A stretch of DNA of 64,000 bases from Naegleria gruberi (taxonomy: Eukaryota), in assembly GCA_000004985.1 (NCBI GenBank), contig GG738909.1; one strand, written 5' to 3'. Positions 1 to 58,612 of this stretch are shown here, piece by piece. The notes below the pieces were generated by a model. It was given only the letters and a program-made list of their open reading frames with translations. It did no database searches and was not told where the DNA came from. The first letter of the stretch is position 1, and every line of letters starts with the position of its first letter. Made by a program: the position numbers and the translations under genes.

Positions 1-471
1 AACCCAAACCCAAACCCAAACCGAAACCCAAACCCAAACCCAAACCCAAACCCAAACCCAAACCCAAAGCCAAACCGAAACCCAAACCCAACCCAAACCC
101 AAACCCAAACCCAAACCCAAACCCAAACCCAAACCCGGACCCAAACCCAAACCCAAACCCAAACCCAAACCCAAACCCAAACCCAAACCCAAACCCAAAC
201 CCAAACCCAAACCCAAACCCAAACCCAAACCCAAACCCAAACCCAAACCCAAACCCAAACCCAAACCCAAACCCAAACCCAAACCCAAACCCAAACCCAA
301 ACCCAAACCCAAACCCAAACCCAAACCCAAACCCAAACCCAAACCCAAACCCAAACCCAAACCCAAACCCAAACCCAAACCCAAACCCAAACCCAAACCC
401 AAACCCAAACCCAAACCCAAACCCAAACCCAAACCCAAACCCAAACCCAAACCCAAACCCAAACCCAAACC
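1..471. repeat. Terminal telomeric repeat array (CCCAAA)n, equivalent to TTTGGG on the G-strand. The C-rich strand is on top, as expected for a left chromosome end. A few variant units (CCGAAA, CCCGGA, CCAAAG) occur within the distal ~140 bp.
   Basis: About 78 tandem hexamers read directly from positions 1-471. The array ends abruptly at ...aaacccaaac|cagatct. Confidence 0.9.
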
Positions 472-1113
472 AGATCTAAAAATAGAATTCTTCTAAACCC
501 AACTTTCAAACCCTAGCCCAAAATTATAAACTTTTTCATATATCATTAAATTTTATATCATTCGATAGGAAATTATGAGTAGATCAACGTAGTATATTTA
601 GTTTTTCAATTTATAAAATATTAACTTTGTAAATAATGTCAGATTAAAAATTATAAAATGAAACTATAGGAAGAATGATAATTTCAAAATCCTTTAATGA
701 GGTTATATAGTCAATATCATCATTAACAACATTTATAATCACTTTCATATGAAGTTTCAAAATTTCAAGTCTGTAGATATAAAAGTATAGAGTGAAAAGG
801 GAAGATGTGAGGTAAAAGAGGTCAACTATAACTTTTGAGTTTCTCATCAAAACATGTTGAATCCTGACATGAAAATGTTCCATTAGGTGAGTATACATCG
901 AATATCAAATTTATTTTAACTTTCATATTTAAAGATTTCTTCCCTCAACCATAATGGTCAACTATGATGAAAAGGATGAAATCTTGAAAAAGGACCACCT
1001 ATTAAAACTTTACCATAATGATGTACATGATATATAATGATATAGAATTCAATTTCATGTCTTAATAATCAGAAATGGTATCATGGGAAGGTAAATGTTG
1101 ATATTTTATGGTT
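472..1113. other. Unique AT-rich telomere-associated spacer between the two telomere-repeat blocks. It carries no convincing coding potential; the track ORFs here are short and low-complexity.
   Basis: Non-repetitive sequence bounded by (CCCAAA)n on the left and by the 50-N gap plus (CCCAAA)n on the right. Confidence 0.4.
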
Positions 1114-1163
1114 NNNNNNNNNNNNNNNNNNNNNNNNNNNNNNNNNNNNNNNNNNNNNNNNNN
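1114..1163. other. Assembly or scaffold gap, exactly 50 N.
   Basis: Run of 50 n characters. Confidence 0.95.
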
Positions 1164-1604
1164 CCCAAACCCAAACCCAAACCCAAACGGGAACCCAAAC
1201 CCAAACCCAAACCCAAACCCAAACCCAAACCCAAACCCAAACCCAAACCCAAACCCAAACCCAAACCCAAACCCAAACCCAAACCCAAACCCAACCCAAA
1301 CCCAAACCCAAACCCAAACCCAAACCCAAACCCAAACCCAAACCCAAACCCAAACCCAAACCCAAACCCAAACCCAAACCCAAACCCAAACCCAAACCCA
1401 AACCCAAACCCAAACCCAAACCCAAACCCAAACCCAAACCCAAACCCAAACCCAAACCCAAACCCAAACCCAAACCCAAACCCAAACCCAAACCCAAACC
1501 CAAACCCAAACCCAAACCCAAACCCAAACCCAAACCCAAACCCAAACCCAAACCCAAACCCAAACCCAAACCCAAACCCAAACCCAAACCCAACCCAAAC
1601 CCAA
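1164..1604. repeat. Second (CCCAAA)n telomere-type repeat block, in the same orientation as the terminal array. It is either internal or subtelomeric, or the end of a separately assembled contig.
   Basis: About 73 tandem hexamers with rare variants (CGGGAA, CCAACC). All long ORFs called here on both strands (PKPKPK, GLGLGL, WVWVWV) are translation artefacts of the repeat. Confidence 0.9.
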
Positions 1605-2413
1605 GAGAATTAAGTTGAACCTATGCGATTTTTCACCTTTTGCCAAATGGTTGCGTATCTAGCAAGCCCCCCCAAGAGAACAAAAAACACAGAAATATTG
1701 AGGTAAAACGAGTTGATTATCTCCATTATTTGATAGCAACCAATATTAAAATTATATATCAGCATGTAGCCGTGAACATTTCCTATCTAATGATATATAT
1801 TGATGTATATGAAGTCTTATAAATAATGATGTTTTAAGAGCGCAGATTAATATCCAAACCCAAACCATAGGCACACTCACTCAACGGCACTCAATCTTAA
1901 CCCAAATCATTCAAATGTTGCACAGAGTCCTTAAATGCCGAAAAAGTGTGGTCTCTCAGGTCGTTATTGATACAAGAGACATTAATAAACTTACACCTTT
2001 TATTTTCCTCATCAACAATGAAATTCCTAGCTGACGAATCTTGCATTCTTGCATTCTTCTTTTCTCCAATCATTTACAAGTAAATATCCAAATAATGATA
2101 AAAACCTTCCAAATCCTTAGCTGATTCCAAACATTCAGTAACTACACTAATAATATGATCTGTAAACTGTTTACTCTGTGTAAATCTCAAAAAGTTGTCA
2201 GATTTCAATGACAATCTCTCTAATATTATTATTCAAATTAATCTGTGAGTCACTTTCTTCTCTAAAGAAGGCATCAATAATCATTTGTGATTGTTGAAAC
2301 CTTGTCAGTGGATCTTTCATCTTGTTAAATTCGGCAATTCTTATTAGAAACTCCAAAGATGACAAATTCAATTCTCTCTTTAAAAACTCTTTGGTTGTCA
2401 ATATCGCTTACCA

Positions 2414-2463
2414 NNNNNNNNNNNNNNNNNNNNNNNNNNNNNNNNNNNNNNNNNNNNNNNNNN
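2414..2463. other. Assembly or scaffold gap, exactly 50 N.
   Basis: Run of 50 n characters. Confidence 0.95.
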
Positions 2464-2615
2464 GAAAATGTGAAAATTAGGAAACTTTCGTTAAATCCAA
2501 CTCGAATTATCTTTACTTTCAATCGACTACTATTGAAAATTCATCATTTTACACACTCAAAGCCAATTTTAAAGATTCGTACATTGTAAAACTAACAATT
2601 AATTCCTATGATGAG

Positions 2616-5236
2616 GTGCAATTTGAAAATTCAACAATTTCACAATCAGCATTTAATAGTTTTGGAGGAAATTATTTTCTCCGATCAACCTTGGATAATT
2701 GTGTCATGTTTGTATCTGCTAATGGATTGAATTTTTCAAATTCGAATATAGTTTCGAGTGGAATCACGAGCGAAGCAGGACAAATTTTAATAATTTCGTC
2801 CAATATTGAAAATTCTGGTATGGACATAAGAATTGGATTGAGTGCAGAATTGAGTTATTCAAAATTTGTGAATACTTCATTGAATGTTGTTGGAATGAAT
2901 AGTTTAATACTTGATAATTCTATATTTACAACGAATAGTTCATTATCAATTGTTGGAATATCAAAGGTTAGGATATTTCGTGGTAATTTTTCATATAATT
3001 CGAATGCACTCTCAATGGAATATGTTACATCCATTGAACTGATTGGGTGCAATTTTATTCGAAACTTGAAACCTTTACGAGTGGTGAATCGACCAAAAGT
3101 TACAACTGGATCTAATATATTGAAAGTAGATTCATGTCTCTTCGTAGAGAATACAGCACAATATGGTGGAGCTATTTATTCAGAGTTTACCACAATTATT
3201 TCCACCAATAATCGATACATTTCGAATAAGGCAGCCAATGGAGGTGCAATCTATGTGAAAAGCACAACATTTATTGACTCTTACTCCACCTTAGATTCCA
3301 ATCAAGCAATTTTAGGTTTATTTGACTGTAACAATCCAGAAGAATGTGGAAATGGAGGGGCTGTTTATTCTGTTGATGGGTATGGCCAATTTGTTAGTCA
3401 ATCAGTCATAAATGGAAATCAAGCAGTGAAAGGTGGCATTTGCTTTAATAGATGTATTTTTTCAGCTTCTTTATTGATGAGTAACAATAGAGCAAGCTAT
3501 TCAGGAAGTGATATTTTCTTTAAAGAGATTCCACCTGAATTTCGTAATGCAATTCCTTTAAGATATAAATCGAACGGGCTTGGAAGTAGAGAATTAATTG
3601 GAGTGAAATGGAGAATTATGACAGATAGAGAATCATTATTTGATTCGAATGAATATCACATCATTTCCGTCTATCCTGGAAAGACAATATCCATAGAGTT
3701 TACTTCCTTAATTGACATTTTCAATAATACATTGGAAAGTTCTCAAATTGCTCCCTCCATTTCTTTGCTATCAAGTGGTGGATATAATATTGTTACAAAT
3801 CCCTTTGATGTAAATAGCAATACATTTTTGAATGTTTATGTACAGGCACCCAATGATAGAATGGAACATATCCTCAATGCAAGTGTTGCGTTTTCTGATA
3901 GAGATTTTACATTCGAATTTGGGATACGTGTTGAAAGGTGTCCTTTCGACTATGCATTCGATAGCTCAACCAATGTATGCACCTTTAGGAGTCATACAGC
4001 TATAATACTTGCAGTAGTGTTTGGTGTTCTTATTCTCTTTATATTTATGGGAGTTGGCTTGGTGTCATGTGTGAAAATTACACAAGCTTTGGTCAAGCTC
4101 TATAAAAGAGAAAAGAAGGAGAAGAGAATTGCACACAAATTGATTGATAAGCAATTTATATTTGGAGATGAATCACCACTTCTTATCAATTTACTCGCCA
4201 AAAATGTGAACAACATTATCATTCCAATTGAGGACATTGAAATTGTCAAAAGAATTGGTGAAGGATCCATGGGTACAGTCTACATGGCTAGTTGGAATGG
4301 AATTACTGTAGCTCTGAAGAGTATCAAGACAGATAGTTTTGACATTTCAGAAGATGAATTTGAACATGAAGCATCTCTTCTTAATAGTTTGAGACATCCC
4401 TCCATTGTGAGATTTTACGGAGTTTCCCTTTCTAATACTAACAAATACATGGTTGTTGAATATTTGGAGAATGGTAGTTTGGATGCTATTATTGCTCAAT
4501 CAAAATGTGGAAGAAGAACTCTAGATTTGAAAAGTAAGATAGAAATTCTGAAAGGAATTGCGAGTGGAATGGATTATTTGCATTCCCTTAAACCTAGATC
4601 TCTCATTCACAGGTAAGTTCTAAAATTATTGTATGGTAAAGAACCACAATTCATGAATTTAGAGATTTAAAACCTGGAAATATTCTATTAGATTCAGATA
4701 TGAAACCTAAAGTTTGCGATTTTGGATTATCCAAAATGACTTCCAACTCTGGAAGCTCAACAATGACAATGAATCTTGGAACAATTTTTTACATGGCTCC
4801 AGAAATTATTGGAAGTGGATACGAAATTGGAAGCTCATTGGATGTCTACAGCTATAGTATGATCATGTATGAATTATTCTTTGAGGAAAAACCTTATTCA
4901 CCAACATATTCTACCAAAATGACAAAATTCTCCCCCAATAGTTCTTTAGACAGTTCCAGAGATTCCCAACAATTTGCATTTTCCATTCCATTAAAAGTGT
5001 TAAAATGTGAGAGACCAAATATACCTTGGAATAATTCACAAGAATTCGAAGGTTGGATTGATGAATTTGTAAAACCATACCAAAGTAGTAGTAGTAGTGG
5101 TGGTGGATTGAATCACTCTGGAGTATGTTCTGAATATATTGAATTGATGCAACAATGTTGGGATCAAGTACCATCCAATAGACCAAACTTCAAGGAAATT
5201 GGCCAACAATTAAACAACATGCTAAGCAGTTTATGA
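2616..5236 (+). CDS. Receptor-like tyrosine-kinase-like (TKL) protein kinase. The extracellular region has chlamydial polymorphic-membrane-protein (Pmp)-type repeats, followed by one transmembrane helix and a cytoplasmic kinase domain. There are two exons, 2616-4612 and 4663-5236, with a 50-nt intron at 4613-4662 (GTAAGT...TAG). The 5' end is unresolved.
   Basis: GGAIYS, GGAIYV, GGAVYS and GGICFN motifs with FxxN spacing, as in Pmp repeats. The TM segment is AIILAVVFGVLILFIFMGVGLV. The kinase shows GEGSMGTVY, a VALK lysine, HRDLKPGNILL (split by the intron after IHR, with an AG|A Arg codon across the junction), DFGLS and YMAPE. No in-frame ATG or signal peptide lies upstream of codon 31 back to the stop at 2478-2480. 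The 50-N gap sits ~150 bp upstream. Confidence 0.8.
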
Positions 5237-5362
5237 AAATAACATCCAAGGTTTGATTAAAGGTCAATAAAAATACTTTCTTAAAAAACTCTTGATGATA
5301 AAACTCTTTAAAATGAATTCATTCGATAATATGAGTTGATTCTTTGAACACAGTTTCAGAAT

Positions 5363-6074
5363 TTGAGAAATGCGATTACAATCTTTTCCAATAATAACAA
5401 GAAAAATAAAAATAACATAAATAAAAAAATGCATCAACATACCGACTTGAATCTTGAGGATTTAATTACTCTATTCGAAAAGAGTGAAAATGATGCAAAT
5501 TTAGAACCCGAACAAATATTTAAATTAATAGAGGAAATTGGTGATAGACGAAAATAATACACAGAAGGAATTTGAATGGAGACTCAAAGGAGCTGAGAAA
5601 GGCTGTGTTAAATTTCAATCAATTATCGGAAGGATGTATGTTGAAGGTAATGGAGTGGAAGAGAATTTGGAAAAGGCTTTTTATTGGATTAAAAAAGCTG
5701 CCGAAGGTGAAGATTCGGATTATCAAATACTTCTTGGTTGGTTATATGAAACAGGAAGAGTTGAAGAAAATCAAGAGATGTCATTATATTGGTATAAAAA
5801 AGCTGCTGATAATGGATCTATGGATGCAATTTATAGATGTGGAAATGTTTATTACTTGGATGACGATTATTCCAATGCATTGAATTGGTTTTGGAAAGGA
5901 GATGCATTAGGAGATGCTCAATCAATGGAAAAAATTGGATTAATGTATAGATATGGCTTTGGATTAAACCAAGATTTGCTAATTAAACCTATATTGCATT
6001 GTTTAATTTATTTCAGTAATAGTATTAAGAAAGATTTCCAATATTCTGAAACAATTGGTTACATTTTAGTTTAA
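5363..6074 (+). CDS. Sel1-repeat (TPR-like) protein. The Sel1 repeats are encoded by the 5538-6074 frame. The upstream ORF 5363-5557 is in frame +2 and overlaps it by 20 nt. The two are probably joined by a frameshift or a tiny intron near 5540-5565, or the gene starts at an internal ATG (5633).
   Basis: At least three Sel1 repeats are visible: GxGVEENLEKAFYWIKKAAEG, LGWLYETGRVEENQEMSLYWYKKAADNG and YRCGNVYY...ALNWFWKG. The first repeat begins before any in-frame ATG of the 5538 frame. Confidence 0.55.
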
Positions 6075-8015
6075 TTACCAACGTTCAGCAACTTGTGGAT
6101 TGTTGATAGCTGCCAAAATTTCGTTAATTCTTGCATCGGTTTGCACGTTAACTCTTGAATAAATGTATGGATTGGTGAGTTTCAAATCTTGAATGCTCTC
6201 CTTTAATTGTTCGAATTCTTTCAAAACCTGTCTCAATTCATCCTTTGATCTACACAAGTAATCTTTGCAGAGAATCTTTTGGAAAACTAATCTGGCATCA
6301 TTATCATATTTTTCCATATAAAAGTCCATTGCTTCTAAACACTTATCAGAATACCCAAGAGCAATCATTCCATTAGCAGCATAACAAAGAGAATCAATAA
6401 CAAAACTTGGATCCACAACTGATTCAAATCTTTCAACAGAAGAATAGGCATTGACTGCTAATTCATACATGTCACAAGCATAATAGCAACCTCCCTTAAT
6501 CATATAAAAATAAGGTCCATTAGGTGACCTCGAATATAATTCAGCTTGTCTGACAAAATCGGCCCCCTTTGCACCGTAAATATGTCTCAAATCTATTGAA
6601 ACTCCAGATTCAGCAGCTCTTGCATACATACTGGCCGATATCAAACTAATTGGTGTGAATTTGAGATCATTAATTCTTTCAACCTGTTTTTCTGGTACTT
6701 CAGTTTCATGTGAAAAATTGGTCTTTGCAAGAGTAGGGAGAGGTAACTTTGGAGTATTTGCAAGGTAGGCCAATGCCTTCTCCAAATGATGAATAGCATC
6801 TGAGTAATTATTGTGAACAACATTGAGGTCTGTCTCTGAACTAGTGAGAATGTCCAAACAAGATGCCTTCAAATAGTGAATATAAATATTCTTTGGATCA
6901 GTTTTGATACATTCATCTAAAATATCAATACTTTGCTTTCTATCACCATCAAAATGAGCAGCAACCTTCAAAGCTTTGATAAAGTTTCCAAGATGAATTG
7001 GAATATTTGTTTCAATATCTTCGAACCAATCAAACTCGTGCTCTGTGAATGTCTTTCCCAAGTAAGAATAAGCATTCTTATCAGCATTATAATGGAAATC
7101 TGGTTCATTTTCAATTGGCTTTGCAGTAGTGTAGGCCAATTTGGCTGCTTCGTAATCTGAAAAGACATGATCTGCATAATTTCTCATTTCACCAGCCATA
7201 ATTGGGAAATCCTTCAATCTATTAAACAAGAATAAAGCTGCAGCAATTACGTTTTCTTTTGTGGTTGGTCTCACCATATCTCTAATGTTTGGAATGTAAG
7301 CTGCATAAGAAAGTGATGCATCATAAGCAGCAAACAAGAAGAGTGTATCGTCAACAGGTGTATCAGCAGGATAAACAGCAGAAAGGGATCGCATGATATT
7401 TTCCTCATTGAATTGAGTTCTGATTGTTTCAACTGGGAACCATTCCTGATTTACAATCTTTAACATTAACAATTCAACCTTCTTCATCAAGACATATGAC
7501 TTCATACCAACATTTGATTTGAAGAATCTAACTTGCATGTTAACTGGATCATTAGTTTTTGGAAAGGTTTTGTAACAAAAATTAATGATATCACAAACTT
7601 CAACAAATAAGTGATTAGTTTCCAATTGAACAGGAGTAGGATGATTTCTACGATATTCAATAATATTTTCAGTTAATTTCTTAAATTTGTCCTCAAGCAC
7701 TTGATAATTTTTGATCAATTCATTCTGTTCTTGTTCGGAATAAACTGCTTTCTCTGCTGCTTGTTGTTTAGCCTTTTTCAAATCAAAGAACATTTTACTA
7801 CTTGTTGTATGATAATTTCTTCTATTTGCAATTTCCATTGAAAAGTTTAATTGATGATGCTTTCCGACATTGATCAGTGGTACGGAATTAAAATTAATCA
7901 TCATCAATCCACAACTACCACCAACAAGAATAGAACCATTCTTGAGAGATGATGAGGATCCTCGAGAAGCAGTAATAATTGATGATGAGAGAACCTTGTT
8001 GGCAAGTGTTTTCAT
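6075..8015 (-). CDS. Hypothetical 646-aa protein. The track ORF begins with a TTG at 8084. The first ATG, MKTLANKVLSSSIITASRGSSSS at 8015, looks like a mitochondrial-type presequence and follows an A-rich leader.
   Basis: Long uninterrupted ORF with protein-like composition. Its stop codon directly abuts the stop of the convergent Sel1 gene (6072-6074 TAA versus 6075-6077 TTA, complement of TAA). Confidence 0.6.
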   Translation of the reverse strand: MKTLANKVLSSSIITASRGSSSSLKNGSILVGGSCGLMMINFNSVPLINVGKHHQLNFSMEIANRRNYHTTSSKMFFDLKKAKQQAAEKAVYSEQEQNELIKNYQVLEDKFKKLTENIIEYRRNHPTPVQLETNHLFVEVCDIINFCYKTFPKTNDPVNMQVRFFKSNVGMKSYVLMKKVELLMLKIVNQEWFPVETIRTQFNEENIMRSLSAVYPADTPVDDTLFLFAAYDASLSYAAYIPNIRDMVRPTTKENVIAAALFLFNRLKDFPIMAGEMRNYADHVFSDYEAAKLAYTTAKPIENEPDFHYNADKNAYSYLGKTFTEHEFDWFEDIETNIPIHLGNFIKALKVAAHFDGDRKQSIDILDECIKTDPKNIYIHYLKASCLDILTSSETDLNVVHNNYSDAIHHLEKALAYLANTPKLPLPTLAKTNFSHETEVPEKQVERINDLKFTPISLISASMYARAAESGVSIDLRHIYGAKGADFVRQAELYSRSPNGPYFYMIKGGCYYACDMYELAVNAYSSVERFESVVDPSFVIDSLCYAANGMIALGYSDKCLEAMDFYMEKYDNDARLVFQKILCKDYLCRSKDELRQVLKEFEQLKESIQDLKLTNPYIYSRVNVQTDARINEILAAINNPQVAERW

Positions 8016-8572
8016 TTTTTTTAATTTTTTTTGTAAATTGGAAATTAACACGAACTTGAATTGATAAAGTGTTAATCCAATCAATTATTTCAAAAACCAT
8101 TCATAGGGATATGGAGTTAATAAAAAATAAATGAGAGAATCTCTTGAAGGAAATTTCATGGTAGAATGTTGATGGTGGAAGGTTGCTGAATATCTTGGCC
8201 AACTTTTGAACTAAAAGAACAAGATGAACAGTAGTGTTAGATTACATTATAGAGACGTATTTATTCATGTCTTGATGAAGAACGATCAAGTAGATGATGA
8301 ATGATTAATGTTAGGAAGCATGTGAAAATTCAATTTGGCAATCTTTAGAAACTGTTCGAAAAACATTGCCAAAACATCCTTGCTGATGTGGTACAATAGT
8401 AAATCTTTGTCTTCCTCGAAATTGACCAAGTTTCCAAAAGGTGCAAATGTTATGTGAAAATTATTTACTTTCATCTTCTCCAACTTCATCCATTTGATGG
8501 AAAGTTTTGAAACTTTCCAGGGTGATACTAATGAACAATTTAGAGCATGCCTATGATGTTTTTGTTGCTCTG

Positions 8573-8890
8573 GATGATGAAAATATTAAAATTAATAAAA
8601 TTGATGATGAAAATATTCTTAAAGTAAAGAGTCGCACCACTTGATTGTAGTATAATGGTGATACTATAAGATGGTGCTACTTCTCCAATTCAACAAATTT
8701 TTCCGTCAATTCAATAATCGCCTTTTAAAAAGTGTAATTCATTTGTTAAAATCCAACAATACTATTTCCACACATTCCATATTATCCTATCGTCTTATCC
8801 TGAAAATATTTTCCACAATGATGAAGAACAGCCTTTGGTAATAAACAAATGATGAAACCTCTCGTTTGCTTGGCTGATGATGAAAATTTT
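8573..8890. promoter_or_regulatory. Three direct copies of GATGATGAAAAT(A/T)TT, at about 8573, 8603 and 8875. They lie 560-880 bp upstream of the 8015 start codon (490-800 bp upstream of the 8084 TTG of the track ORF). Candidate cis-regulatory repeats.
   Basis: The repeated 15-16-mer was read directly. The repeats sit in a 1.5-kb non-coding spacer between the 3' end of the 1578-aa gene and the start of the 6075-8015 gene. Confidence 0.25.
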
Positions 8891-9559
8891 TTGTAATTTT
8901 AATTTATCAAAAATATTCAACAAATAGTCTGTGGACATTCTCGGAGTGGTTTTACATCATGAAACCACCAAACTTTCACGACATCATCTCAACATCATCA
9001 TAAGTAGTAATAATAGCAATTTATTGGTGGATTATCATCAACAAGTTTCAAAAATATTGGATCAACATCAGGTACATCACTCTGCTGATTCTTGGAGTGA
9101 TTTCACATCTATTAACTCCAAGAATTTCACCACATCATCTCATCATCATTTAAATAATAGTATTAATAGTAATTTTTGGAATTTAATTCTTCATCATGAT
9201 TTGGAAATTATTTTATTATTTGGAAAAATTCAAGTTGGTACATCATCATCGGAACAACTACCAACCATCATCATTGTTATTTATCATCATTATAATAGTA
9301 ATATTTGTGGAAATAAATCTGATTTGTTGAGGTTATTCTTCATATAAATATGATTTCTCTCTTCATGATATGAGGAGGGATTGATATCATGATTTTTTGG
9401 AAGTTGTTAATTTAATTTATTTAACCTGTTTTTCTAATGATGTGGATGTTGACTCGTATTGAAGGAACATTTAACAGTTGTAGATTTATCATTATTAGAA
9501 TCAATAGCTTTGATTTAGGTGAATATGTATTTCCTTACATATCATAAAGAATTGAGTTT

Positions 9560-12500
9560 TTATTTTGATTCAGTGATAGGAGCTACAATTAATGTATTTT
9601 CATCTTCCTTTGATAAACTCAATTTGATTTCTAAAGTATTCTCATTAATGTTTGAATGGAAATCTTGTTGTTTTGCGTTCATTACAATGGACAAAGCGTT
9701 CAGAGGAAGTTTCTTTTCTAATAATGGCTTCACAATTTCTACTATGCAGGAAATACAAGTAGTTCCTGTCATTATTTGAGCCATCGGTGTGCTTAGATCC
9801 TCAAGAGATGGAAAGAAGGTTACTGTAAACATAACACCGGTTTCTTCCTTGATGTGCTCGATGAATTGATCAACAGCTCTTTCCATTTTCCAATTCCTAA
9901 TACTCTTACCAATAGAGGTTGCAATTATCATGTCATCAGAGATGTTTTTGGAAATTCTTGGTGTTTCAAATTCAAATGAAAGATGTTGCATCTCTGTACC
10001 GTACAGAGAAGCACTAATATCAAAGAAACAAAGAAATAGATCGGCAGCCTTATTTTCCAATGTTGGATGCATTATGGAAGACATTTGTTCGAATAATTGT
10101 TTTCTCTCTTCTAAAATCTTTGCCTTTAAGCCGGGTGTATCTTCAATGACTGTTAAAATAAACTTGCTTAATTTGGTTCTATTGAGAAGAATACTCATTG
10201 TAATTATATTGCTCGCTATTTCATCTCCACATGTTAAAATTTCAAATAATCCTTTTTCTATCAAATTACTTCCACTTAACTTGATAGTTTTGTGATAGAG
10301 ATTAAAAAGTCGAAGAAGAGAATCCTCATCGAGTTGAATTCTTCCCTGTTGAGTTGATGTAAAGAAGAAAATTGTCAAATTCTCGTAGGCAGAAGTGTAG
10401 ATAACAGCCTCAAAGAAACTAGTCCAATAGCTTCTTGGAGTTGCACTTTTACCAGAGAAACAATAAAACAACATATTGTCGGTAATTTCAGAGTGTGGAG
10501 AAGGAATACTCTTTTGGGCTACAAAATGATAAATAAATAATTTGATGAATTTGTCATCGAATCTAAAGCTCTCAGAGTTATCTATGTAATACTTCATCCA
10601 ATAACTCCTAATGAGAAGATGGTATGAATATGGTTCGATTTCGACATTCAATAGTGGAGCATCTGGATGTTCCTCATTATGCTTTAAGATCATGTTGAGA
10701 GCACCAACTTTAGTTGACCAATCTCCAAAAAGCTCAAGATTTGTTACCATTCCTTTCGATGAAAGATCTCTGAGGACTGAAAGACATTGCTTTCTAATTG
10801 CAACTTTTCCAGAGAGGTAAGCTAAATAATGAGTTGGGTAGACAATAGGTAGCTCCTCATCTTCCGACTCATTAATTTCATTGGACATTCCAGCCTTGTA
10901 TGATGTGTCTAAAAACATTTTCGAAAATACTGATATTTCTAAAGAGCTATGGACTAATTGGAAGGACTCAACACACCCACCATAACATATAGAATGGAGC
11001 GGTGTTTCATTGGAGTCACTCTTGATGGCCAATATTTGATCCATTGAAATGAATTCACATATGAGGGATGATAATAATTTGTCGCAACCACCTCTAAAAA
11101 CTGATAAAATGGATTCCGTGATAGAAGTTAAATCTTCAATGCTTAATTGTAAATTCTTATTCATAAAAGAGGAAATCAGCCTTTTAGTGCATTTGACATT
11201 GCCCACACTAATAGCATTTTTTAGCAGTGAGAGTAATTGAGGCTGCTTTTCAGAAGACCCTATCCATTCCTGGAGGTTATCCATGTCTTTTCTATTCTTT
11301 TCATTGAAAGTTCCAAAGCTGTATAAAAACTTTGAAATCTTCAACTGTTTTGCTGGTGTAATAATGTCGTTCAAGAGTGTAGGGGTAAGTAAATGAAGGC
11401 AAGAGTTCGACAAGCAAAAAAGAAGCACATTCTTGAATTCTGCAGTAAGAAACTCTTTCATATACTGTTCGATTGAAAGGTTTTTCTTGTGCAATCTGTA
11501 GTACTTGGCAAATTTTTCCAAAATGGATGAATGGTCTTGGAATTTGGAAAAATCAGGAGTTGAAAGCCCCAAACATGCTTTCAAAATCTCTGCTTCAATT
11601 AAAACTTGTTCTCTCATCCAAAAATCTTTATCATTACCCACTCTATCTTGCAAATATCCCAAGTTTGCAGTTACCGCTCTCAAAAATTCCTTCTGCACCA
11701 GCTCTTCGCTCCTTATACACTCCTTAATGCATTTTGCCGCTTCTTCCAAAATCTCAAATGCATTAGGTGTTTCAAAATTCTCATCTTCAATCCTTTCCTT
11801 AACATAATTGTTGTCAATGTAGAAGAGCAAAATGTATCTTCTAATATTTGGCATCTCCAACTTAAAACTGGTATTTCTTTCAATTTGCTTTTTTGTACTT
11901 TTCTTGACATCAGCATGTTCGTAAGGTTTTAAAAGGTATCTTTTTAGAAATTGTGAATCACTACATCCAACAACCCAGTTCTTAATCCATGATCTCATGT
12001 CATCATCGACAACAGTAATCGTTCCATCAAGGGTTTCAACTTTAAATTGAGGATGCAATAACTTGGAAACAACCTTGAACTCTGCCTTCTTAAGAAATAA
12101 ACACATGAGGATATGAAGTATTGGGGCATCAGAACCGTCATCAGAGGAAACCTGAGCAACTGTAGTAAAGAAATCCTCTGTGAGAATACTTGCAAGATTA
12201 CTTGTGCAATAAACAAGTGTTGTTAAGGCATTATAAATCATATCACTTTGCTTCAAGCTTGTAAAGTTCGATTCGAATTTGTATTTCAAATCATCATGAT
12301 TCAAACCAATTTCTTTCAGGAATGTTACTATTTCTTTGAACATTTCAATTTTTCTCATTACAAGACATTGTTGAACTATGTAACCACATTGATTCTTAAG
12401 GGATGTTCTGAATTCATCACCTTCGGAGCACAATTCTTTAACTCTACTCCAAATTACTTGTTGTAACATTACTGCGTGAGGAATGTCAGAATGGACTGAT

Positions 12501-14296
12501 AGAATGTATTCCAATGGAGATTGCTCGAATTTGTTGGATTCAAATGCATGCAACTTTTTGGAAGGTATTGTATTGTTTTTAAGTAATAGTTGACCTATTA
12601 GGTTTGTTGAATTTGATATTACTTTTTCCACAAGTTCTAGTAATTCAACATCTCTTGAATTGAGGCTTAACTCGATTAATTGCACGGTTTCAGTGGTCGA
12701 TAATTTGAAATTGTGCGTTTCCACTAAAAATGTAACGAGAGGAATGTTTCCAGCCCTCATATTTTGAATAATTGTAGATAAGGCGGAACGAGAAGAAGAA
12801 TTTTCAGCTTCTCTCTTTTCAAATATGGAAGGATAAAACCTGTGTAACATCTTGGCAACATGCACACTCTTGATGTAGTTCAAAATAAATGGCCTACAAG
12901 CTTCAGGTTTACCAATACTTGCATAACTACTAATCAGAGGGATGTTTTCATCCAATACAGCCATTTCTAATTGAGTGAGACCATATCTATCCTCAACGAT
13001 ATTAACATTTTCAGGTTTGAATAGATCGAGTCTGATTTTCCATTGAGCTGCTTCATTAAAGTAGAGAGCTCTAAAATCCTGGGTATATTTCTGCTTTTCT
13101 GCTTTCTTTTTGTAAAGCTTTTCTAATATTTGAAGTGCTGTTGTGTTTTGCTTATCCAATCCCCAGAATAGCTTTAAAATTGATTCGTATGGACTTGAAG
13201 TCTTTCCTGCCAATGATGCTAGTTCTTGAACTAGACTGTAAGCTAACTCACCATCTTCCGAGTAAAGGGAACTGTATTTGTGAGAAATCAATTCTTCATT
13301 ATTGTTTGGTCTAAACAGATCAGTTTCAATATCTATGTGTTCTGCCAATTTTTTCAACATTTCCAAACTCGTTACATAAAATAGAGCAGTATTTGAGTTG
13401 GTGTCTCTTTGTGATGGACTTGCCCCAAGTTGCAATAACGAATCCACTGCTTTCATGTTGTTCTTACCCACAGCAAAATGAAGGAGAGGCATTCCCATAC
13501 AAGTATTCATGTAAATACTTCCTTTGAAATCAGAAGGAATTGTGTGATTTTCCTCAATACTAATTAATGCATTTTCCGTGTGTTGCATCAAGTTTTTAAA
13601 GTCCTCATTGCCTTCAATAAAGTAATTTCTCCTCTCCTCAGTAATTGTGAATGGTTTTTCTAATTGCTCTGGTAATGCCTCTACCAGTGCTTGAATGATT
13701 GGAAGGAGAACCTTATCAGATTCAATAGATTTCGGAATTTGAATTGAAGTTAGAACGGCTTTGTCATTCTTATCATCCACTTGTTGAATCATGGTTGCAA
13801 TTACTGTTGAATATCCTCTCACCCTAACAAAAACAATTGTTTCCATATCAATATCACCCCCCTCAATATCCAAGAAAAAGCAATCAGGAAAACAGTTATT
13901 CATCTCGAAATAGTAAACATCATCATTGGCCACATACTTGTTGGTCTCATCAGAACTGAGCCACTTTCCCCAAGTTGACAACAATTGCTCATCTCGTTTT
14001 TCATACTTTGAAAGAGCTCTCGATACTTTCTTTTCTGCTATTGAGGATTTTTTTTCCTCAGTTGATGTATTTACAGGATCTTGTTCTTGTTTTGTTTGAA
14101 TATGATGAGAGGATTTATCTGCTGATAGCGATGATGACGAAGCTTGTTTTACCTCCTCCTTCTTTGCCTCGGTATGTTGCTTTTGATCGTTCTTTGAAAC
14201 ACTCGATCTCAGCACCTTCTTTGGTTTTTCAGTGGAAAACCTTTGAGGTTCTTCAACATTCTTCAATTGCTTTTGTGTTGAACAGGCTGAACCCAT
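9560..14296 (-). CDS. Large 1578-aa protein with an N-myristoylation-type start (MGSACST) and at least two ankyrin-like repeats. Function unknown.
   Basis: A single 4.7-kb ORF with an ATG start. The N-terminus fits the MGxxxS/T consensus. Ankyrin-like repeats are GMPLLHFAVGKNNMKAVDSLLQLGASPSQRDTNSNTALFY and NETPLHSICYGG. An S/K/E-rich linker follows the N-terminus. Confidence 0.65.
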   Translation of the reverse strand: MGSACSTQKQLKNVEEPQRFSTEKPKKVLRSSVSKNDQKQHTEAKKEEVKQASSSSLSADKSSHHIQTKQEQDPVNTSTEEKKSSIAEKKVSRALSKYEKRDEQLLSTWGKWLSSDETNKYVANDDVYYFEMNNCFPDCFFLDIEGGDIDMETIVFVRVRGYSTVIATMIQQVDDKNDKAVLTSIQIPKSIESDKVLLPIIQALVEALPEQLEKPFTITEERRNYFIEGNEDFKNLMQHTENALISIEENHTIPSDFKGSIYMNTCMGMPLLHFAVGKNNMKAVDSLLQLGASPSQRDTNSNTALFYVTSLEMLKKLAEHIDIETDLFRPNNNEELISHKYSSLYSEDGELAYSLVQELASLAGKTSSPYESILKLFWGLDKQNTTALQILEKLYKKKAEKQKYTQDFRALYFNEAAQWKIRLDLFKPENVNIVEDRYGLTQLEMAVLDENIPLISSYASIGKPEACRPFILNYIKSVHVAKMLHRFYPSIFEKREAENSSSRSALSTIIQNMRAGNIPLVTFLVETHNFKLSTTETVQLIELSLNSRDVELLELVEKVISNSTNLIGQLLLKNNTIPSKKLHAFESNKFEQSPLEYILSVHSDIPHAVMLQQVIWSRVKELCSEGDEFRTSLKNQCGYIVQQCLVMRKIEMFKEIVTFLKEIGLNHDDLKYKFESNFTSLKQSDMIYNALTTLVYCTSNLASILTEDFFTTVAQVSSDDGSDAPILHILMCLFLKKAEFKVVSKLLHPQFKVETLDGTITVVDDDMRSWIKNWVVGCSDSQFLKRYLLKPYEHADVKKSTKKQIERNTSFKLEMPNIRRYILLFYIDNNYVKERIEDENFETPNAFEILEEAAKCIKECIRSEELVQKEFLRAVTANLGYLQDRVGNDKDFWMREQVLIEAEILKACLGLSTPDFSKFQDHSSILEKFAKYYRLHKKNLSIEQYMKEFLTAEFKNVLLFCLSNSCLHLLTPTLLNDIITPAKQLKISKFLYSFGTFNEKNRKDMDNLQEWIGSSEKQPQLLSLLKNAISVGNVKCTKRLISSFMNKNLQLSIEDLTSITESILSVFRGGCDKLLSSLICEFISMDQILAIKSDSNETPLHSICYGGCVESFQLVHSSLEISVFSKMFLDTSYKAGMSNEINESEDEELPIVYPTHYLAYLSGKVAIRKQCLSVLRDLSSKGMVTNLELFGDWSTKVGALNMILKHNEEHPDAPLLNVEIEPYSYHLLIRSYWMKYYIDNSESFRFDDKFIKLFIYHFVAQKSIPSPHSEITDNMLFYCFSGKSATPRSYWTSFFEAVIYTSAYENLTIFFFTSTQQGRIQLDEDSLLRLFNLYHKTIKLSGSNLIEKGLFEILTCGDEIASNIITMSILLNRTKLSKFILTVIEDTPGLKAKILEERKQLFEQMSSIMHPTLENKAADLFLCFFDISASLYGTEMQHLSFEFETPRISKNISDDMIIATSIGKSIRNWKMERAVDQFIEHIKEETGVMFTVTFFPSLEDLSTPMAQIMTGTTCISCIVEIVKPLLEKKLPLNALSIVMNAKQQDFHSNINENTLEIKLSLSKEDENTLIVAPITESK

Positions 14297-33603: not shown

Positions 33604-36600
33604 TTATTGAGAAGAGTGAATAATGAAAACAATTAAGATTATCAACCAAAATAAAGAAATTGCGAATGAAGAATTGGCAGACGAAACTCTATCACTATTC
33701 TTTGGTACGACAATACTTGAATTTTGAACCTTGACAGATTGTCCAGGAGTTGGTTTAGTTGAAGATGTCACTGGTTTCACAGTGGAAGTCATAGCAGAAG
33801 GTTGTGGTTTTGGTGATGGATACAAGGATGGTTGTGGCTTTGGTGATGGATACAGAGATGGTTGTGGTTTTGGTATAATTGAAGAACAATTGAGTCCTGT
33901 GAAACCATTCAAACAAGTGCACTGATCTGGTTTCGTACAGTTTCCATTACCTGAACAAACTGATGAGGAGTTGGTACTTGAAATTCCAAAGCAATTGAAC
34001 ATGTCGCACTCAACACCACTGTATCCACTCGTTGGACATGAAACTGGAGTTGGAGCTATGGCTTGATAGATTATTGAAGAGGTTGCAGTGGATTGAGTAA
34101 TTTCAATTCTTCTCTTATCTTGAATATCCTTTCTTTGTAAATAACTCAAATTGATTTGAGTTGTAATTAATCCGCCAATAGTTTGTAAAGTAATCTTATA
34201 AGATGAATCCTTTACAATTTCTTCAACTTGGGTTATATTGACATTTTCACCAGTTTTCAATGGAATTAACAATGTGACCATTAAGGCATCTTTCACATTT
34301 TCCACATAATGAACAAGTGAAGTGGCAGGTGTTGGGTCGACTCCTCTTTGAATATCAAATCCAAGAATAAATGGAGTAGTTTGAGCAATTGCATGATAAG
34401 CTAATGTTGAGGTAGAAAGTGGAATAATCATCAAATTTGGAACTCCTGTATCGTTGGTGACGAGAGAATTGAATTTTGAATCAAATTTGACATTGGTAGT
34501 TCTCAAATGCCAACGAGCTTGATAATGATGAGGATTTCCATCGGCAGACTTCAATGTATCAATAGCAACATACATATTAATACCCAAATTGTGAGTTGGC
34601 TTGACAAATAGGAATTCTCTTGTGTGATTGGCAGGAAAATAAGAAGTATTTCTATAAGCATCAATATAGACACCTCTGGCATAGTCAATCAATTGAGTTG
34701 TTTCAAAAACTGGAAGTGGTGTTTCCTTTTTTCCATATCCTGTCAAATCATTTGCAACTCTATTGACACGTTTCTGGGAGAAACCATCCACCATGACAGT
34801 ATTGTGAGATTCTGTTGATGTTGCAAAGGTTCTGTAAATAGATTGCTCATATTCACCACCACCATTATCAAACAATAATCTTCTTCTTCCATAAGGGTCA
34901 ATAATTACATTCAATTTGTCCTGATGTTCGTGTCCATAACCAAGTGGAGAAATATCCATCAAGGCATAGTTATCTGAGCTAGACCATCCGCTTCTCATGA
35001 CCATAAACCCACAATCTTTGAGGAGAGTGCTGTTGAATGATGGAGCTGGATTGACATTTCTGTTCATGAGCCATTTGATGAGAGCAGAATCTGGGAAATA
35101 TGAAGCATAGGTAGTGATATAATTGTAAACCTGATAATCCCATCCATCGTTCAAAGGACCTGGCATGTAGAGTGAAGGTGTCATGATTGAAATGTCAAAT
35201 TCCAATGCCTTTTGAAGTCTGTTCACATAATCTACAGGAAATTCATTCACAATACCAACAGTTTTGGCTGTCAAATATAATCCAATAATATTGTCAATTG
35301 AAACATGATGATAACCAGTTGATAATTCATATTGAGCACCATCTGAAAGGAATTGAGCAACTGACTCATTGTACATGGTTGAGATTGCGATAGATCTCCA
35401 AGTGGAAGATAATTTAAACTCGGGAAAAACAGCACCTGCCGTAAACAAACCATTACATTCCATAGTCAACCAATTTCCAGTAGTTCTGTAAGTATGCAAA
35501 TAGATTGCTTGTTCATAAATACTCTTGACAAGTGTATGTAAATCATCGCATGGTAAAACTGTCAAGAATCTATGATAAATTTCAGCCCATGAAGTTGACA
35601 AACGAATACCAGCTTCAATTGTTCTCCAAGCGCTATAACCAGCTTGATTGGCAAACGTTGGTCTTGGTTGACTAATCACCCATGAATTCAATTGAGCAGC
35701 AAACAAGTTAGTAATATTCTGAGCTAGCTCCATTTGAGAAGTTCCATTTGCATACCACAAGGCACGTCCCAAATCAGTCCAAAATGACATTCTATTCAAT
35801 TGCCATGTCCATTCAGCATCATATGGATCTGGAGATCCTGGTTGAGCTGTTGGATTGTAATTCCAATTGATATTCTCAGGATCTGCAAACGTGTATGGAA
35901 TGCTTACAACGGTGATTTTTCCAGACAAAGTTTCCTTTGCCTTTGTAATATATGAACTGGCAATTCCTGCTGAGGAAATCTTTCGAGGATTGAAACTCCA
36001 TGGTACGTTATTTCTTTCAAATTTCAAATAGGTACAAAAAGCACTCTTAGCTTTCGAATAATCCTTATCCTGAACTGCTTGTTTCACAGAAGAAAGTTGT
36101 GGAATACTAAAATTCAAAGCATTGAAAAATTCCACATCACCTACTACTGGTCCAACCACATCAAACATACTGAAATCTGACATTTTTACCTCAAGTGAAG
36201 TATTTGTCTTGGAAGTTCCCCAATTTGTGTAAAAAACCAACTGGTCAATCTTATCCCAACCAAGTGGTGTTCTTACAGTACTGAAATCTGATCTTTTCAA
36301 TGTGAATTTCTTCCATCCTGTGAAATCTAACACGACATTATACATGTAGTAATCAGCTCCTGTTTGTGCAGAGTCCTCACTTCCCATATATAGATAAATA
36401 GTGTTGCAGGAACATGGAGAGTTGACTTTGAGATAAAATTGAATGTAAGTGGCAGTGGAAAAATCCATAATTGAAGAAGAAAGGTTTAGATTATTTCTTG
36501 CTATTTGGAAAGTACCAGAAAGGGACATATTCCAAACTACAGAACTTGCCACACTATTAATTGACAAGTCATCAACATCCGGATAATCCAAACTGTCAAC

Positions 36601-36789
36601 CTTTACGAAATTTCCCTTCCAATCTTGCGTATTATTACAATTTGAAATAAATTTCTGATTCACAATTGTCGAATTGACCTTATGTGAAAATATTGTGAAA
36701 AGAAACACAACACCCACGACAAGCAATAGAAATTTCAACTTGTTGGTGTGAAAATTGTGAACAAAAATGGCGGTTTGTTGTTTTTTCAT
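33604..36789 (-). CDS. Cell-surface heparinase II/III-like (alginate-lyase-like) polysaccharide lyase-fold protein. It has an N-terminal signal or anchor, a ~750-aa lyase-like domain, an EGF-like Cys-rich module, a PKPQPSLYPS-repeat and S/T-rich stalk, and a C-terminal hydrophobic GPI or TM signal.
   Basis: Lyase-type motifs DGAQYELSTGYHHVS (ExSxxYH) and GHEHQDKLNVIIDPYG (HxHxD of the heparinase II/III C-terminal beta domain). The (alpha/alpha) toroid region is W-rich. EGF-like segment: CPTSGYSGVECDMFNCFGISSTNSSSVCSGNGNCTKPDQCTCLNGFTGLNC. C-terminus: SSFAISLFWLIILIVFIIHSSQ. Confidence 0.55.
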   Translation of the reverse strand: MKKQQTAIFVHNFHTNKLKFLLLVVGVVFLFTIFSHKVNSTIVNQKFISNCNNTQDWKGNFVKVDSLDYPDVDDLSINSVASSVVWNMSLSGTFQIARNNLNLSSSIMDFSTATYIQFYLKVNSPCSCNTIYLYMGSEDSAQTGADYYMYNVVLDFTGWKKFTLKRSDFSTVRTPLGWDKIDQLVFYTNWGTSKTNTSLEVKMSDFSMFDVVGPVVGDVEFFNALNFSIPQLSSVKQAVQDKDYSKAKSAFCTYLKFERNNVPWSFNPRKISSAGIASSYITKAKETLSGKITVVSIPYTFADPENINWNYNPTAQPGSPDPYDAEWTWQLNRMSFWTDLGRALWYANGTSQMELAQNITNLFAAQLNSWVISQPRPTFANQAGYSAWRTIEAGIRLSTSWAEIYHRFLTVLPCDDLHTLVKSIYEQAIYLHTYRTTGNWLTMECNGLFTAGAVFPEFKLSSTWRSIAISTMYNESVAQFLSDGAQYELSTGYHHVSIDNIIGLYLTAKTVGIVNEFPVDYVNRLQKALEFDISIMTPSLYMPGPLNDGWDYQVYNYITTYASYFPDSALIKWLMNRNVNPAPSFNSTLLKDCGFMVMRSGWSSSDNYALMDISPLGYGHEHQDKLNVIIDPYGRRRLLFDNGGGEYEQSIYRTFATSTESHNTVMVDGFSQKRVNRVANDLTGYGKKETPLPVFETTQLIDYARGVYIDAYRNTSYFPANHTREFLFVKPTHNLGINMYVAIDTLKSADGNPHHYQARWHLRTTNVKFDSKFNSLVTNDTGVPNLMIIPLSTSTLAYHAIAQTTPFILGFDIQRGVDPTPATSLVHYVENVKDALMVTLLIPLKTGENVNITQVEEIVKDSSYKITLQTIGGLITTQINLSYLQRKDIQDKRRIEITQSTATSSIIYQAIAPTPVSCPTSGYSGVECDMFNCFGISSTNSSSVCSGNGNCTKPDQCTCLNGFTGLNCSSIIPKPQPSLYPSPKPQPSLYPSPKPQPSAMTSTVKPVTSSTKPTPGQSVKVQNSSIVVPKNSDRVSSANSSFAISLFWLIILIVFIIHSSQ
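33800..33877. repeat. Tandem 30-bp coding repeat (2.6 copies) that encodes the PKPQPSLYPS stalk repeats of the lyase-like gene.
   Basis: ggttgtggttttggtgatggatacaaggat, then ggttgtggctttggtgatggatacagagat, then a partial copy. Confidence 0.7.
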
Positions 36790-54440: not shown

Positions 54441-54804
54441 TACAACAATGGATGGGACACATTCCTATTCAATCACATCAAATGTTATATGTTCAAAACC
54501 ATCCATCAATCCAATTTTCCATCTCTTCATCTCTCTTAAAACCAACTCATCAAAATATTTTTTTAAATTTCGTATCACCACGGAATTCCCGCCTTCTTGT
54601 TCAGTTAAGGTTGCTATTGTCTGCTTATTCGCACCAACAAAAGAAAATAAAACAACAACAATAATAGTGTATCATCTATTAATATAACAATAAAAACACG
54701 GGAGGCATCCATCGTGTAATAATACATTGAGTATAGGTCTTTGGAAAAATTCAGTGAGAGGTTGAGAAAAAACAAATTCGTAAATAATAACGACTAGAAA
54801 AAAA

Positions 54805-57800
54805 ATGCAAAGTCTTAGCCCTACGGGAGGTTCAAGTGTAGATATTAAAAAGTTAGCCTCTGTAGGATCATCGGCCTCTTTGATATCTGCGAGAGGACAT
54901 CAGGAGAGTGCCATGTCTTCGGTTTCTGGAAGTAAGGACTGGTCTAATTTGTCAGTCTTTTCATCATTTATCAATAATTCGACTTTTCCAATTGAGGATT
55001 TACATAATGTTGCACAAGCTTTAAAGCCTCCGGAAAAGACGATTCCATCCTCTTCGCAAAAGGGACCAACAATATTTCCTAAATATCAAAAGAAGATTTT
55101 GATTAAATTTAAGGGAAGAACTTTCATCGATATTCCTTACTATCCTTACGTGAATGATGATGCGGAAACAGAATCAACAACATCAAAATCACCAGGACCA
55201 AACCAAAAGAAGAAACCTTCATCAGCATCAGGAAAACGACCTGGATCTTCTAATAGTACTAAAAAGGGAGCAAATAATTCTGCCATTTCTACAGAGAGTA
55301 ATACAACTACCAATGATGATGGTTCAATTCAAAAATTGTGGGAACACAGAGTGGTTTATTTTGTAGCAAGTAATTATGGAGGAAGTACAGGTTTTGTGGA
55401 ACTACATCAAACACTAATTGACTCACAAGAGTATAACATCGAGAAGGAACATACCATCTACATGGAAACCTTACAAGATTTAGTTTATTTCGAATCTTGC
55501 CCATTTGTATCATTTGTAATTAGAAGAGAATTTGATCCTGCCACACCTCCAACAACTGTAGAAAAGAAAAAGTCTTCTAAAAAGGAAGCAACTCCATCAA
55601 ATGCTGGAAATAAGAAAGATAATACACCTCCTGCACCAGGTCTTCCAGCAACAAATACCACAAAAAAGGTACAGAATAATATTGGTTCAGCAAATCAAAT
55701 ACCTTTGGAAGAACTACAGGAAGGAATGATTGCTGATATTAAGGCAGCTTTTGGAAGTCATTGCGAGATTCTCCATTCTTACAGAGCTTCGACAATTCCA
55801 CTATTTGTAAATGACAAGTTTGGCTATACAAAATGCAAATATGAATTTGTTTATAGTCCAAAGTACAAATATTGGTCTTCATTGTTAGACACTAAGAGCG
55901 AAACAGCCTCGAATGGTTTTGATGAGTCATTTAAATCAGAAGGTATTTCATCTGCAAGATTCAGTGTCAATGCCTTGTCATTTACGCCACCACAAGATTA
56001 TAGTGAATTTATGCACAATATTAATATTAGGTTTGAGGTAGCTGAAGGAGCAAGCATTCTCTCGGAAGATGTTCAAAACAAACTCAATCCAATGATGGTT
56101 TCAATTTCTTCACTGAAGGATCTCCCAAATGAAAGCTACCTATCTGATAGATGTAAGCCTGTTTCTGTATCGTATTCCATCAGAGGTAAAACTTTCAAAA
56201 CAAAGGGCTATCACCATGATTCACTGATTAATCTTGGCTATCAAAGGATTATTTATCTGGGAAATTCAAATGAGATGGAAATGTACAGAGATTATTTTAT
56301 CAGAATGCCAATAGTTTTCGAGACACACGACAGAGACCCTAAGGATGGTATCGCCAAGTTCTTTGGTAAATCAGAGGTAGCTCTTAAAACGTTAATTTTA
56401 AACTCTAGGGGAAGAGATATTTCAGACAATTTCCAAATTCAAGGCTACACAATACTACCAGACGAATACGAGAAGGCTGTAAAAAGAATTGAAGAGGAAA
56501 AGAAAAAGGCTCAAACTCAAGAAGAGGAAAAGAAGGCCAAACCGAACACAAAATCTCCAAAGAATTTGAATATGAAGAGTCCGTCTGTTGAATCTCCAAA
56601 GAATTCTCTCAATGATTCTGTATTTACTGTAGAGTATTCCATATTTGAGGGAAAATATGTCGAAAAGAAGAGTTCGATAAAGATTCAACTCAGATTTAAT
56701 ACACCATTCCCACAATTTACAGAGACTGAGAAGAGTACATATCCAATCATTTTAACCTTTGATTGGGAGAATGCCAATCTAATTCAAAAAACAGAACAAA
56801 TATTTAATCAATTTTTCATTAAGCCAATGCCAGCAAAGAGTCGATCAGATTTGTTTGGTGGCATGCCAAATTCAGGAACTATGAATGGTGGAGGAGCAAA
56901 TCTTTCTCCAGTCAATCAATTTAATACTCTGTCATTATCTCCAGAATCGGCTTCCTCAGACATGACTCCAGGAGGAAAGAATTCAGGAAAGGATGTTTTC
57001 AAACACTTTTGTGGATTTGAAATTTGCGATGGTAAGAAACGTTTAATGGTTATTGAGGCCACCTCAAAAGATGCCTTCAGGTACCTTACAGGGCATTTAG
57101 AAAAATACATATCCAAAGAAAATCAACCTGTAAATATAATGTATGACCCAACCTATTTCTATTCGAATAGACTCTATGAACAGCTTGTGCTTGGACCTAA
57201 ATCAGATAGGGCAGAAGATAAAAAGCCAGCTGGAAGGAGATCATCTGTTCAAATTGAGATTGATCAAAAGAAGCCAATCATTAGATTGAGACTCCAAGAT
57301 ACATTTGAAAATATCCTCTCCACAAAAGATATGTACATTAAGAACAAAAAGTCAGAGGATGTCAAGATACTATCAGCATTATCCAAATTGAATCACATCT
57401 TTATGGTGGACACTATTAATCAAGTGATTGAAAACAGTCTCCTTCCAGATTCCTCCCTCTTGATGAATATTAAGGAGAGACATTGTGATGACGGCCTAAT
57501 TGAAATTGATTCAATTATTGCTAATAACCAAAAGAAGAGACAAGAAGAAGAACAAATGCACACCAAACATATGAAGGACAAGGCAACAGAGGAGTTGTAC
57601 AAATCACCTCAAACTGTTGAAGATTTGGCTCTTCACTTGGGAGAGGAAATTGGTTTCGAGGGTATTCCACTCATTGAAACACCTCAACATTTACCTCCTC
57701 CAGAGAAGGTCTTATTTGAAGGGGAAGAGAAGAGAAAGAAGAATAGAATCAAGAACTGGAAGACAAATCCTTCAGGATTCTCTCTGGATGAAGTATCTGC

Positions 57801-58557: not shown

Positions 58558-58612
58558 AAAACAATTTTTAAATTAAATTTTGTGATTTCAAATATTTTTT
58601 TAAAATTAAAAA

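Follow-up and report, generated by a model that had tools for sequence, protein, structure and literature searches.

Organization of the Scaffold End

The window analyzed here, which is the whole stretch of 64 kb, begins with a (CCCAAA)n array at positions 1–471 (minus strand), delimited with Tandem Repeats Finder and by alignment of its units (period 6, 78.7 copies, 97% matches, score 900). This outer array is followed by a unique, AT-rich segment of 642 bp with a GC content of 25.5% (472–1113; spacer A) and by a first scaffold gap of 50 N (1114–1163), which forms a contig boundary. An inner (CCCAAA)n array (minus strand), delimited by the same two procedures (period 6, 73.8 copies, 97% matches, score 847), starts at the next base and occupies positions 1164–1604. 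Beyond it lie a unique segment of 809 bp that is unrelated to the first (1605–2413; segment B) and carries, on its minus strand, a pseudogene fragment of an RGS and START domain gene (1999–2398, matched by tblastn to the protein P0130); a second scaffold gap of 50 N (2414–2463); and, on the plus strand, a gene for a receptor-type TKL kinase whose ectodomain is rich in repeats and contains GGAIY motifs (2481–5236). The initial annotation had described a second array of nearly equal length and the same orientation directly after a 50-N gap, as well as a further 50-N gap at 2414, and both descriptions were confirmed, the array as 1164–1604 and the gap as 2414–2463.

The two gaps are the only runs of N in the 64-kb window, each of exactly 50 N, and we infer from the two identical values that 50 N is the default gap size of the assembly. 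The gaps separate contig A (1–1113; 1113 nt), composed of the outer array and 642 bp of unique DNA, from contig B (1164–2413; 1250 nt), composed of the inner array and 809 bp of unique DNA, and the latter from a large contig that begins at 2464. Under our assumption on read length, contigs A and B would each have the length of roughly one or two Sanger reads. Each of them opens inside a telomere array. No bases join spacer A to the inner array, the 50-N gap being all that lies between them.

The unique parts of contigs A and B showed no significant likeness to each other or to the rest of the window. Their best mutual match was an inverted one of 39 nt at 85% identity (535–573 vs. 1778–1813, E 2e-4), which is probably due to chance; the match is AT-rich and has a 20-nt core at 95%. 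A search of positions 1–6000 against Rfam matched no family.

Source Organism and Telomere-Type Repeat

Six long ORFs in the window were identical to predicted proteins of N. gruberi NEG-M (EFC38280, EFC38234, EFC38236, EFC38237, EFC38285, and EFC38243), all of which are encoded on one draft scaffold of 250,472 bp. The window forms the left end of this 250-kb NEG-M draft scaffold, and its base 1 would correspond to the scaffold end. It has a GC content of 35% and, when translated with the standard code, contains numerous long ORFs.

A survey of public assemblies for terminal minisatellites had already proposed TTTGGG as the candidate N. gruberi telomere repeat in 2013, rating its terminal pattern in this genome as convincing and noting that the terminal position of candidate repeats was still to be confirmed by experiment (Fulneckova et al., PMC3622300). 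The repeat type was therefore known, and the window adds nothing on the repeat itself. The proposal that the TTTGGG hexamer could help place the organism was supported by the exact N. gruberi protein matches together with this prior report (PMC3622300). The survey and the present analysis concern the same species and the same hexamer, and both draw on the terminal location of the repeat and its orientation in a public assembly; the window is evidently one scaffold end on which the 2013 call rests. What differs is the double array of the present end, which is not described in the survey. In the literature on Naegleria telomeres and on long-read chromosome ends, we found no description past that of 2013.

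The telomeres of Paramecium mix TTGGGG and TTTGGG units. TTTGGG is thus shared as one of two units, whereas the present arrays are pure CCCAAA, with zero CCCCAA units; Paramecium is a ciliate, whereas the present organism is a heterolobosean with standard-code genes and long ORFs. A ciliate telomere of the Paramecium type was considered as a candidate and rejected on the basis of the standard code, the exact Naegleria proteins, and the absence of CCCCAA units.

The outer array (471 nt) and the inner array (441 nt) were close in length and contained 73 and 70 perfect CCCAAA units, respectively. Outside both arrays, the 64-kb window held no further run of two or more units of CCCAAA, TTTGGG, CCCCAA, or TTGGGG, and the paired-array pattern is far beyond chance. 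In both arrays, the plus strand is the C-rich strand in the 5′ to 3′ direction, and the unit on the G-strand is TTTGGG, a short T/G-rich tandem unit of the TnGm type that characterizes telomeres. The 3′ end of the G-rich strand therefore points to the left end; both arrays have the polarity expected of a left telomere. The outer array, which starts at base 1, combines this outward 3′ orientation of the G-strand with a terminal site; the inner array shares the orientation and that half only. Position, polarity, and repeat finder together bore out the description of a terminal C-strand telomere array with TTTGGG as its G-strand. The (CCCAAA)n tracts are the N. gruberi telomere-type repeat. In analogy to all telomeres characterized so far, telomerase would synthesize them as (TTTGGG)n on the strand with the outward-facing 3′ end.

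Distribution of Variant Units in the Arrays

Departures from the repeat were mapped by aligning each array to a perfect CCCAAA repeat. The outer array had six departures (CCGAAA twice, GCCAAA, CCCAA, and CCCGGA), every one of them within its first 138 nt, and was perfect CCCAAA over the other 333 nt; by our own arithmetic, finding six of six departures in 138 of 471 nt has a probability of ~6e-4 under uniform positions. The inner array contained three clustered substitutions (CGGGAA) located 25–27 nt from the start of the array and contig, one single-base deletion at 1295, which is 131 nt from the start, and one single-base deletion at 1594, at a distance of 10 nt from the proximal junction. 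Departures in both arrays are concentrated within ~140 nt of the distal edge; in the proximal ~300 nt, the outer array has only perfect units and the inner array almost only such units.

In real telomeres, variant repeats tend to sit proximally, and the distal part is renewed by telomerase. Noise at the distal edge of a contig is the opposite of this usual biological pattern and is what is expected of read tails; low-quality read tails account for the distal variant units better than biological variation does. The initial annotation had noted variant units at the very end of the sequence, which held for their position (the first 138 nt), with read tails as the better reading of them. Both arrays are noisy distally and clean proximally, and thus both resemble contig termini of one kind.

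Unique Segments Adjoining the Arrays

Near its start, spacer A contains a degenerate, telomere-like stretch (~491–525; CTAAACCCAACTTTCAAACCCTAGCCCAAAA). Its GC content lies inside the range of 24–36% measured for the intergenic stretches of the window. We found no convincing ORF in spacer A, and a protein database search with its ORFs returned no homologue. A second copy was absent from the 64-kb window, and one exact 24-mer from the spacer had zero matches in JGI metagenome contigs. A mitochondrial source for spacer A was considered and appears unlikely, as its ORFs lacked protein hits and its GC content falls inside the nuclear intergenic range.

Segment B contains a two-unit telomere-like motif at ~1853–1866. 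When all ORFs of positions 472–2780 were pooled as a protein query, the single database match was N. gruberi P0130, an RGS and START domain protein whose gene lies on a different scaffold of 297,120 bp. With tblastn, residues 114–177 and 203–274 of P0130 aligned to positions 2398–1999 on the minus strand with identities of 97% and 94%, respectively. This fragment, located 395 bp from the inner array, has a deletion of ~83 nt that leads to a frameshift near 2207–2214 and an in-frame stop at 2074–2076 in place of Ser249. Contig B therefore holds a broken partial gene copy from elsewhere. The fragment could be either a recent subtelomeric pseudogene copy or an indication that contig B belongs to another locus.

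The composition of these segments bears on whether one of the contigs might be a cloning or assembly chimera, in which telomere repeats were joined, in vitro or in silico, to unrelated Naegleria DNA and no chromosome end is represented. Both contigs are very short and probably contain few reads each, as might be expected of such a product. Segment B joins a frameshifted, stop-bearing gene fragment from another scaffold to non-homologous flanks, and segment A was without a homologue in the window, in the ORF protein search, and, for one 24-mer, in the JGI metagenomes, both of which are compatible with a chimera. The telomere-like stretches at 491–525 in segment A and 1853–1866 in segment B, however, look like natural junctions, segment A, at 25.5% GC, falls into the intergenic range of the window, and the orientation of the array is biologically correct in both contigs. 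Because both junctions between telomere repeat and unique DNA look natural, we regard a chimeric contig as very improbable.

The Kinase Gene at the Second Gap

The reading frame of the TKL kinase gene is open from 2481 and lacks a start codon. Positions 2706–4616 encode exactly the annotated model, P0131, whose first residue is an internal Met and which ends with exon 1. A short apparent intron follows at ~4617–4699, and the kinase domain goes on in 4700–5236, a part that the public model omits. In a comparison with P0176, a more complete relative, residue 70 of the relative aligned to residue 14 of the query, which suggests that at least ~56 residues are missing from the N terminus of the kinase. 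Given the open frame without a start and this alignment, the second gap cuts the 5′ end of the gene. At least ~170 nt of coding sequence and the promoter are lost at this gap, compared with the 50 N drawn. The 50-N gap therefore understates or misrepresents the missing DNA.

These results modify two statements of the initial annotation. The first gene had been placed ~1 kb past the inner array, which agrees with the model start at 2706, but this model is truncated at its 5′ end and the pseudogene fragment at 1999–2398 lies nearer to the array. The statement that very little subtelomere is present is correct for this assembly, but what is there is a patchwork of the RGS/START fragment and the 5′-truncated kinase gene. 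The first annotated gene of the scaffold (2706–4616) is a truncated model, and users should treat it with caution.

Origin of the Double Array

The combined evidence indicates that the scaffolder likely stacked two telomere-bearing contigs and that the second array is not a real internal one. The first base of the inner array directly follows the first gap, and both gaps of the 64-kb window fall in its first 2.5 kb. An array starts each of the two separate contigs, the gaps are of identical size, bridging sequence is absent, and both arrays carry the signature of a contig terminus, poor distally and clean proximally. The near-equal arrays, the small contigs (1113 and 1250 nt), and the identical gaps fit a shared technical limit combined with default gaps. 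This limit may be the reach of a read anchored in unique sequence, which would explain why the two arrays are nearly equal in length. Stacking is further favored by the lack of similarity between segments A and B, by the piece of a gene from another scaffold in segment B, and by the loss of the 5′ end of the kinase gene at the second gap.

Under stacking, the scaffolder would have set the contigs 1–1113 and 1164–2413 in series before the large contig, using default 50-N gaps, and contigs A and B would most likely be two alternative termini. Two sources of such termini can be envisaged. The contigs may derive from the haplotypes of a heterozygous diploid with differing ends, each connected by mate pairs to a common internal contig (2464 onwards), or the end of another chromosome may have been drawn in via interchangeable telomeric reads. 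Naegleria has been described as a heterozygous diploid, and heterozygosity has been reported for N. gruberi (PMC9928731), so that different ends on the two homologues are plausible. Segments A and B are without similarity; if they are haplotypes, the ends therefore differ in structure and not only by SNPs. A similar picture is known from stacked or uncollapsed contigs in Sanger-era drafts of heterozygous genomes, which likewise show short contigs, default gaps, and tandem-duplicated features at the end of a scaffold. The present segments A and B differ from this picture in that they are not allelic versions of each other, given their lack of similarity.

The main alternative is a true, near-perfect interstitial tract of (TTTGGG)n, 441 bp or longer, located ~0.7 kb inside the terminal array. 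Such a tract could arise through capture of a fragment at the chromosome end followed by addition of a new telomere, or through a subtelomeric duplication bounded by tracts, as with the Y′ elements of yeast. Both arrays share one orientation, as telomere capture and healing predict, and many genomes with terminal repeats have internal blocks too (PMC3622300). Dynamic subtelomeres typically have a patchwork make-up like that of segment B, which includes a piece of a gene copied from another scaffold, and contig A was set distal to contig B by the scaffolder, presumably on mate-pair grounds. An interstitial telomeric sequence is flanked on both sides by contiguous non-telomeric DNA, however, and the distal flank of 1164–1604 is an N gap, so that no sequence places the array internally. 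A 441-bp tract beside ordinary clonable DNA should also have been bridged by Sanger reads, and there is no bridge; if the tract were far longer, the minimal gap estimate of 50 N would be odd. The tract is 97% perfect, with its irregularities at the contig edge, and its length is nearly equal to that of the terminal array, which the interstitial model does not predict. Finally, searches of the window, of the protein database with the spacer ORFs, and of the JGI metagenomes with one 24-mer did not reveal another copy of the spacer. We therefore consider a true interstitial tract unlikely.

Tandem Y′ elements in yeast are separated by short TG1-3 tracts. Such interstitial systems and the present end share the order of tract, unique element, and tract, all in one orientation. 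In contrast to the yeast arrangement, the inner tract described here has an N gap on its distal side and is as long and pure as the terminal one, and the Y′ element is repeated, whereas the present spacer occurs once within the window.

Several points nevertheless run counter to stacking. Scaffolders normally need mate-pair support to place a contig, and contig A may lie near the present end for real. In other organisms, internal telomere tracts in the same orientation between subtelomeric elements are a real phenomenon, and the gene-fragment patchwork of segment B resembles a true subtelomere. The initial annotation had left open whether the second array was an interstitial sequence or subtelomeric duplication or resulted from two telomere-bearing contigs having been scaffolded together. 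The gap joins, the pattern of noise in the arrays, and the unrelated segments favor scaffolded contigs and disfavor an interstitial origin.

For users of the assembly, the first 2.4 kb of the scaffold should be taken neither as an interstitial telomere nor as a true map of a chromosome end. To our knowledge, the telomere biology of Heterolobosea is essentially unstudied. If the double array and its interstitial tract were true, they would offer a small but real starting point for studying how telomeres heal and subtelomeres turn over in this group and a first look at its subtelomere dynamics. It is quite doubtful that a near-perfect interstitial tract less than 1 kb inside the telomere records a recent capture of foreign DNA and re-capping by telomerase, beside a subtelomere built of gene fragments.

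Related Sequences in Environmental Data Sets

The contig k127_415157 of ENA ERZ929261 (project PRJEB11402) was 98.6% identical at the DNA level to positions 54582–58709 of the window. A close relative of N. gruberi was therefore sequenced in an environmental or mixed sample. The pooled query of ORFs of 472–2780 matched nothing from this ENA strain, and no contig for the present end was found there.

A scan of metagenome contigs for (CCCAAA)6 returned 120 loci. Many of these were internal and located in GC-rich, probably prokaryotic contigs, and ~30, among them 13 from the single project JAESGV01, were terminal and correctly oriented. The contigs with (CCCAAA)6 showed no similarity to the window. 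Short-read contigs are incapable of revealing double arrays, and the scan therefore says nothing on the question of an assembly artefact.

In the WGS project JAESGV01, 13 contigs ended in correctly oriented (TTTGGG)n with heterogeneous junctions (L007, L029, L031, L042, L054, L077, L078, L082, L083, L084, L102, L115, and L120). Telomeric ends of the TTTGGG type therefore exist in other environmental eukaryotes. Three of these contigs, L078, L102, and L120, were homologous (77–92%) yet had the telomere at differing positions, a pattern that suggests telomere addition at variable sites. Contig L083 showed mixed CCCCAA and CCCAAA units at its junction, as in a Paramecium-type mix. Contig L084 encoded a Ty3/gypsy-type pol ORF with RT, RNase H, and integrase (229–3765), directly adjoining the TTTGGG telomere, followed by two PPR-DYW proteins (5668–8616 and 8702–11497). 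Beyond the land plants, PPR proteins of the DYW type are rare, Naegleria being among the known cases. The only protein matches of the L084 PPR-DYW gene were distant plant ones.

Other Features of the Window

The window also encodes a 1578-aa ankyrin-repeat protein (9560–14296, minus strand), the first 232 residues of which (13610–14296) have a 95.7% identical copy in P0122 (EFC35794). P0122 is encoded on a separate N. gruberi scaffold of 10,458 bp, and the copy could be a haplotig that has diverged or could result from a segmental duplication of the present chromosome-end region. A small-scaffold copy of this kind, here of a gene 14 kb further in, is a feature comparable to those of drafts with uncollapsed contigs.

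Another protein encoded in the window is an EML-like WD40 protein, whose best named relative is from N. gruberi. On the minus strand, a 1061-aa ORF (33604–36789) contains the N- and C-terminal domains of heparinase II/III (E 1e-99) together with a weak EGF-like match. A heparinase II/III protein is unusual for a protist, and its gene is possibly an acquisition of bacterial type.
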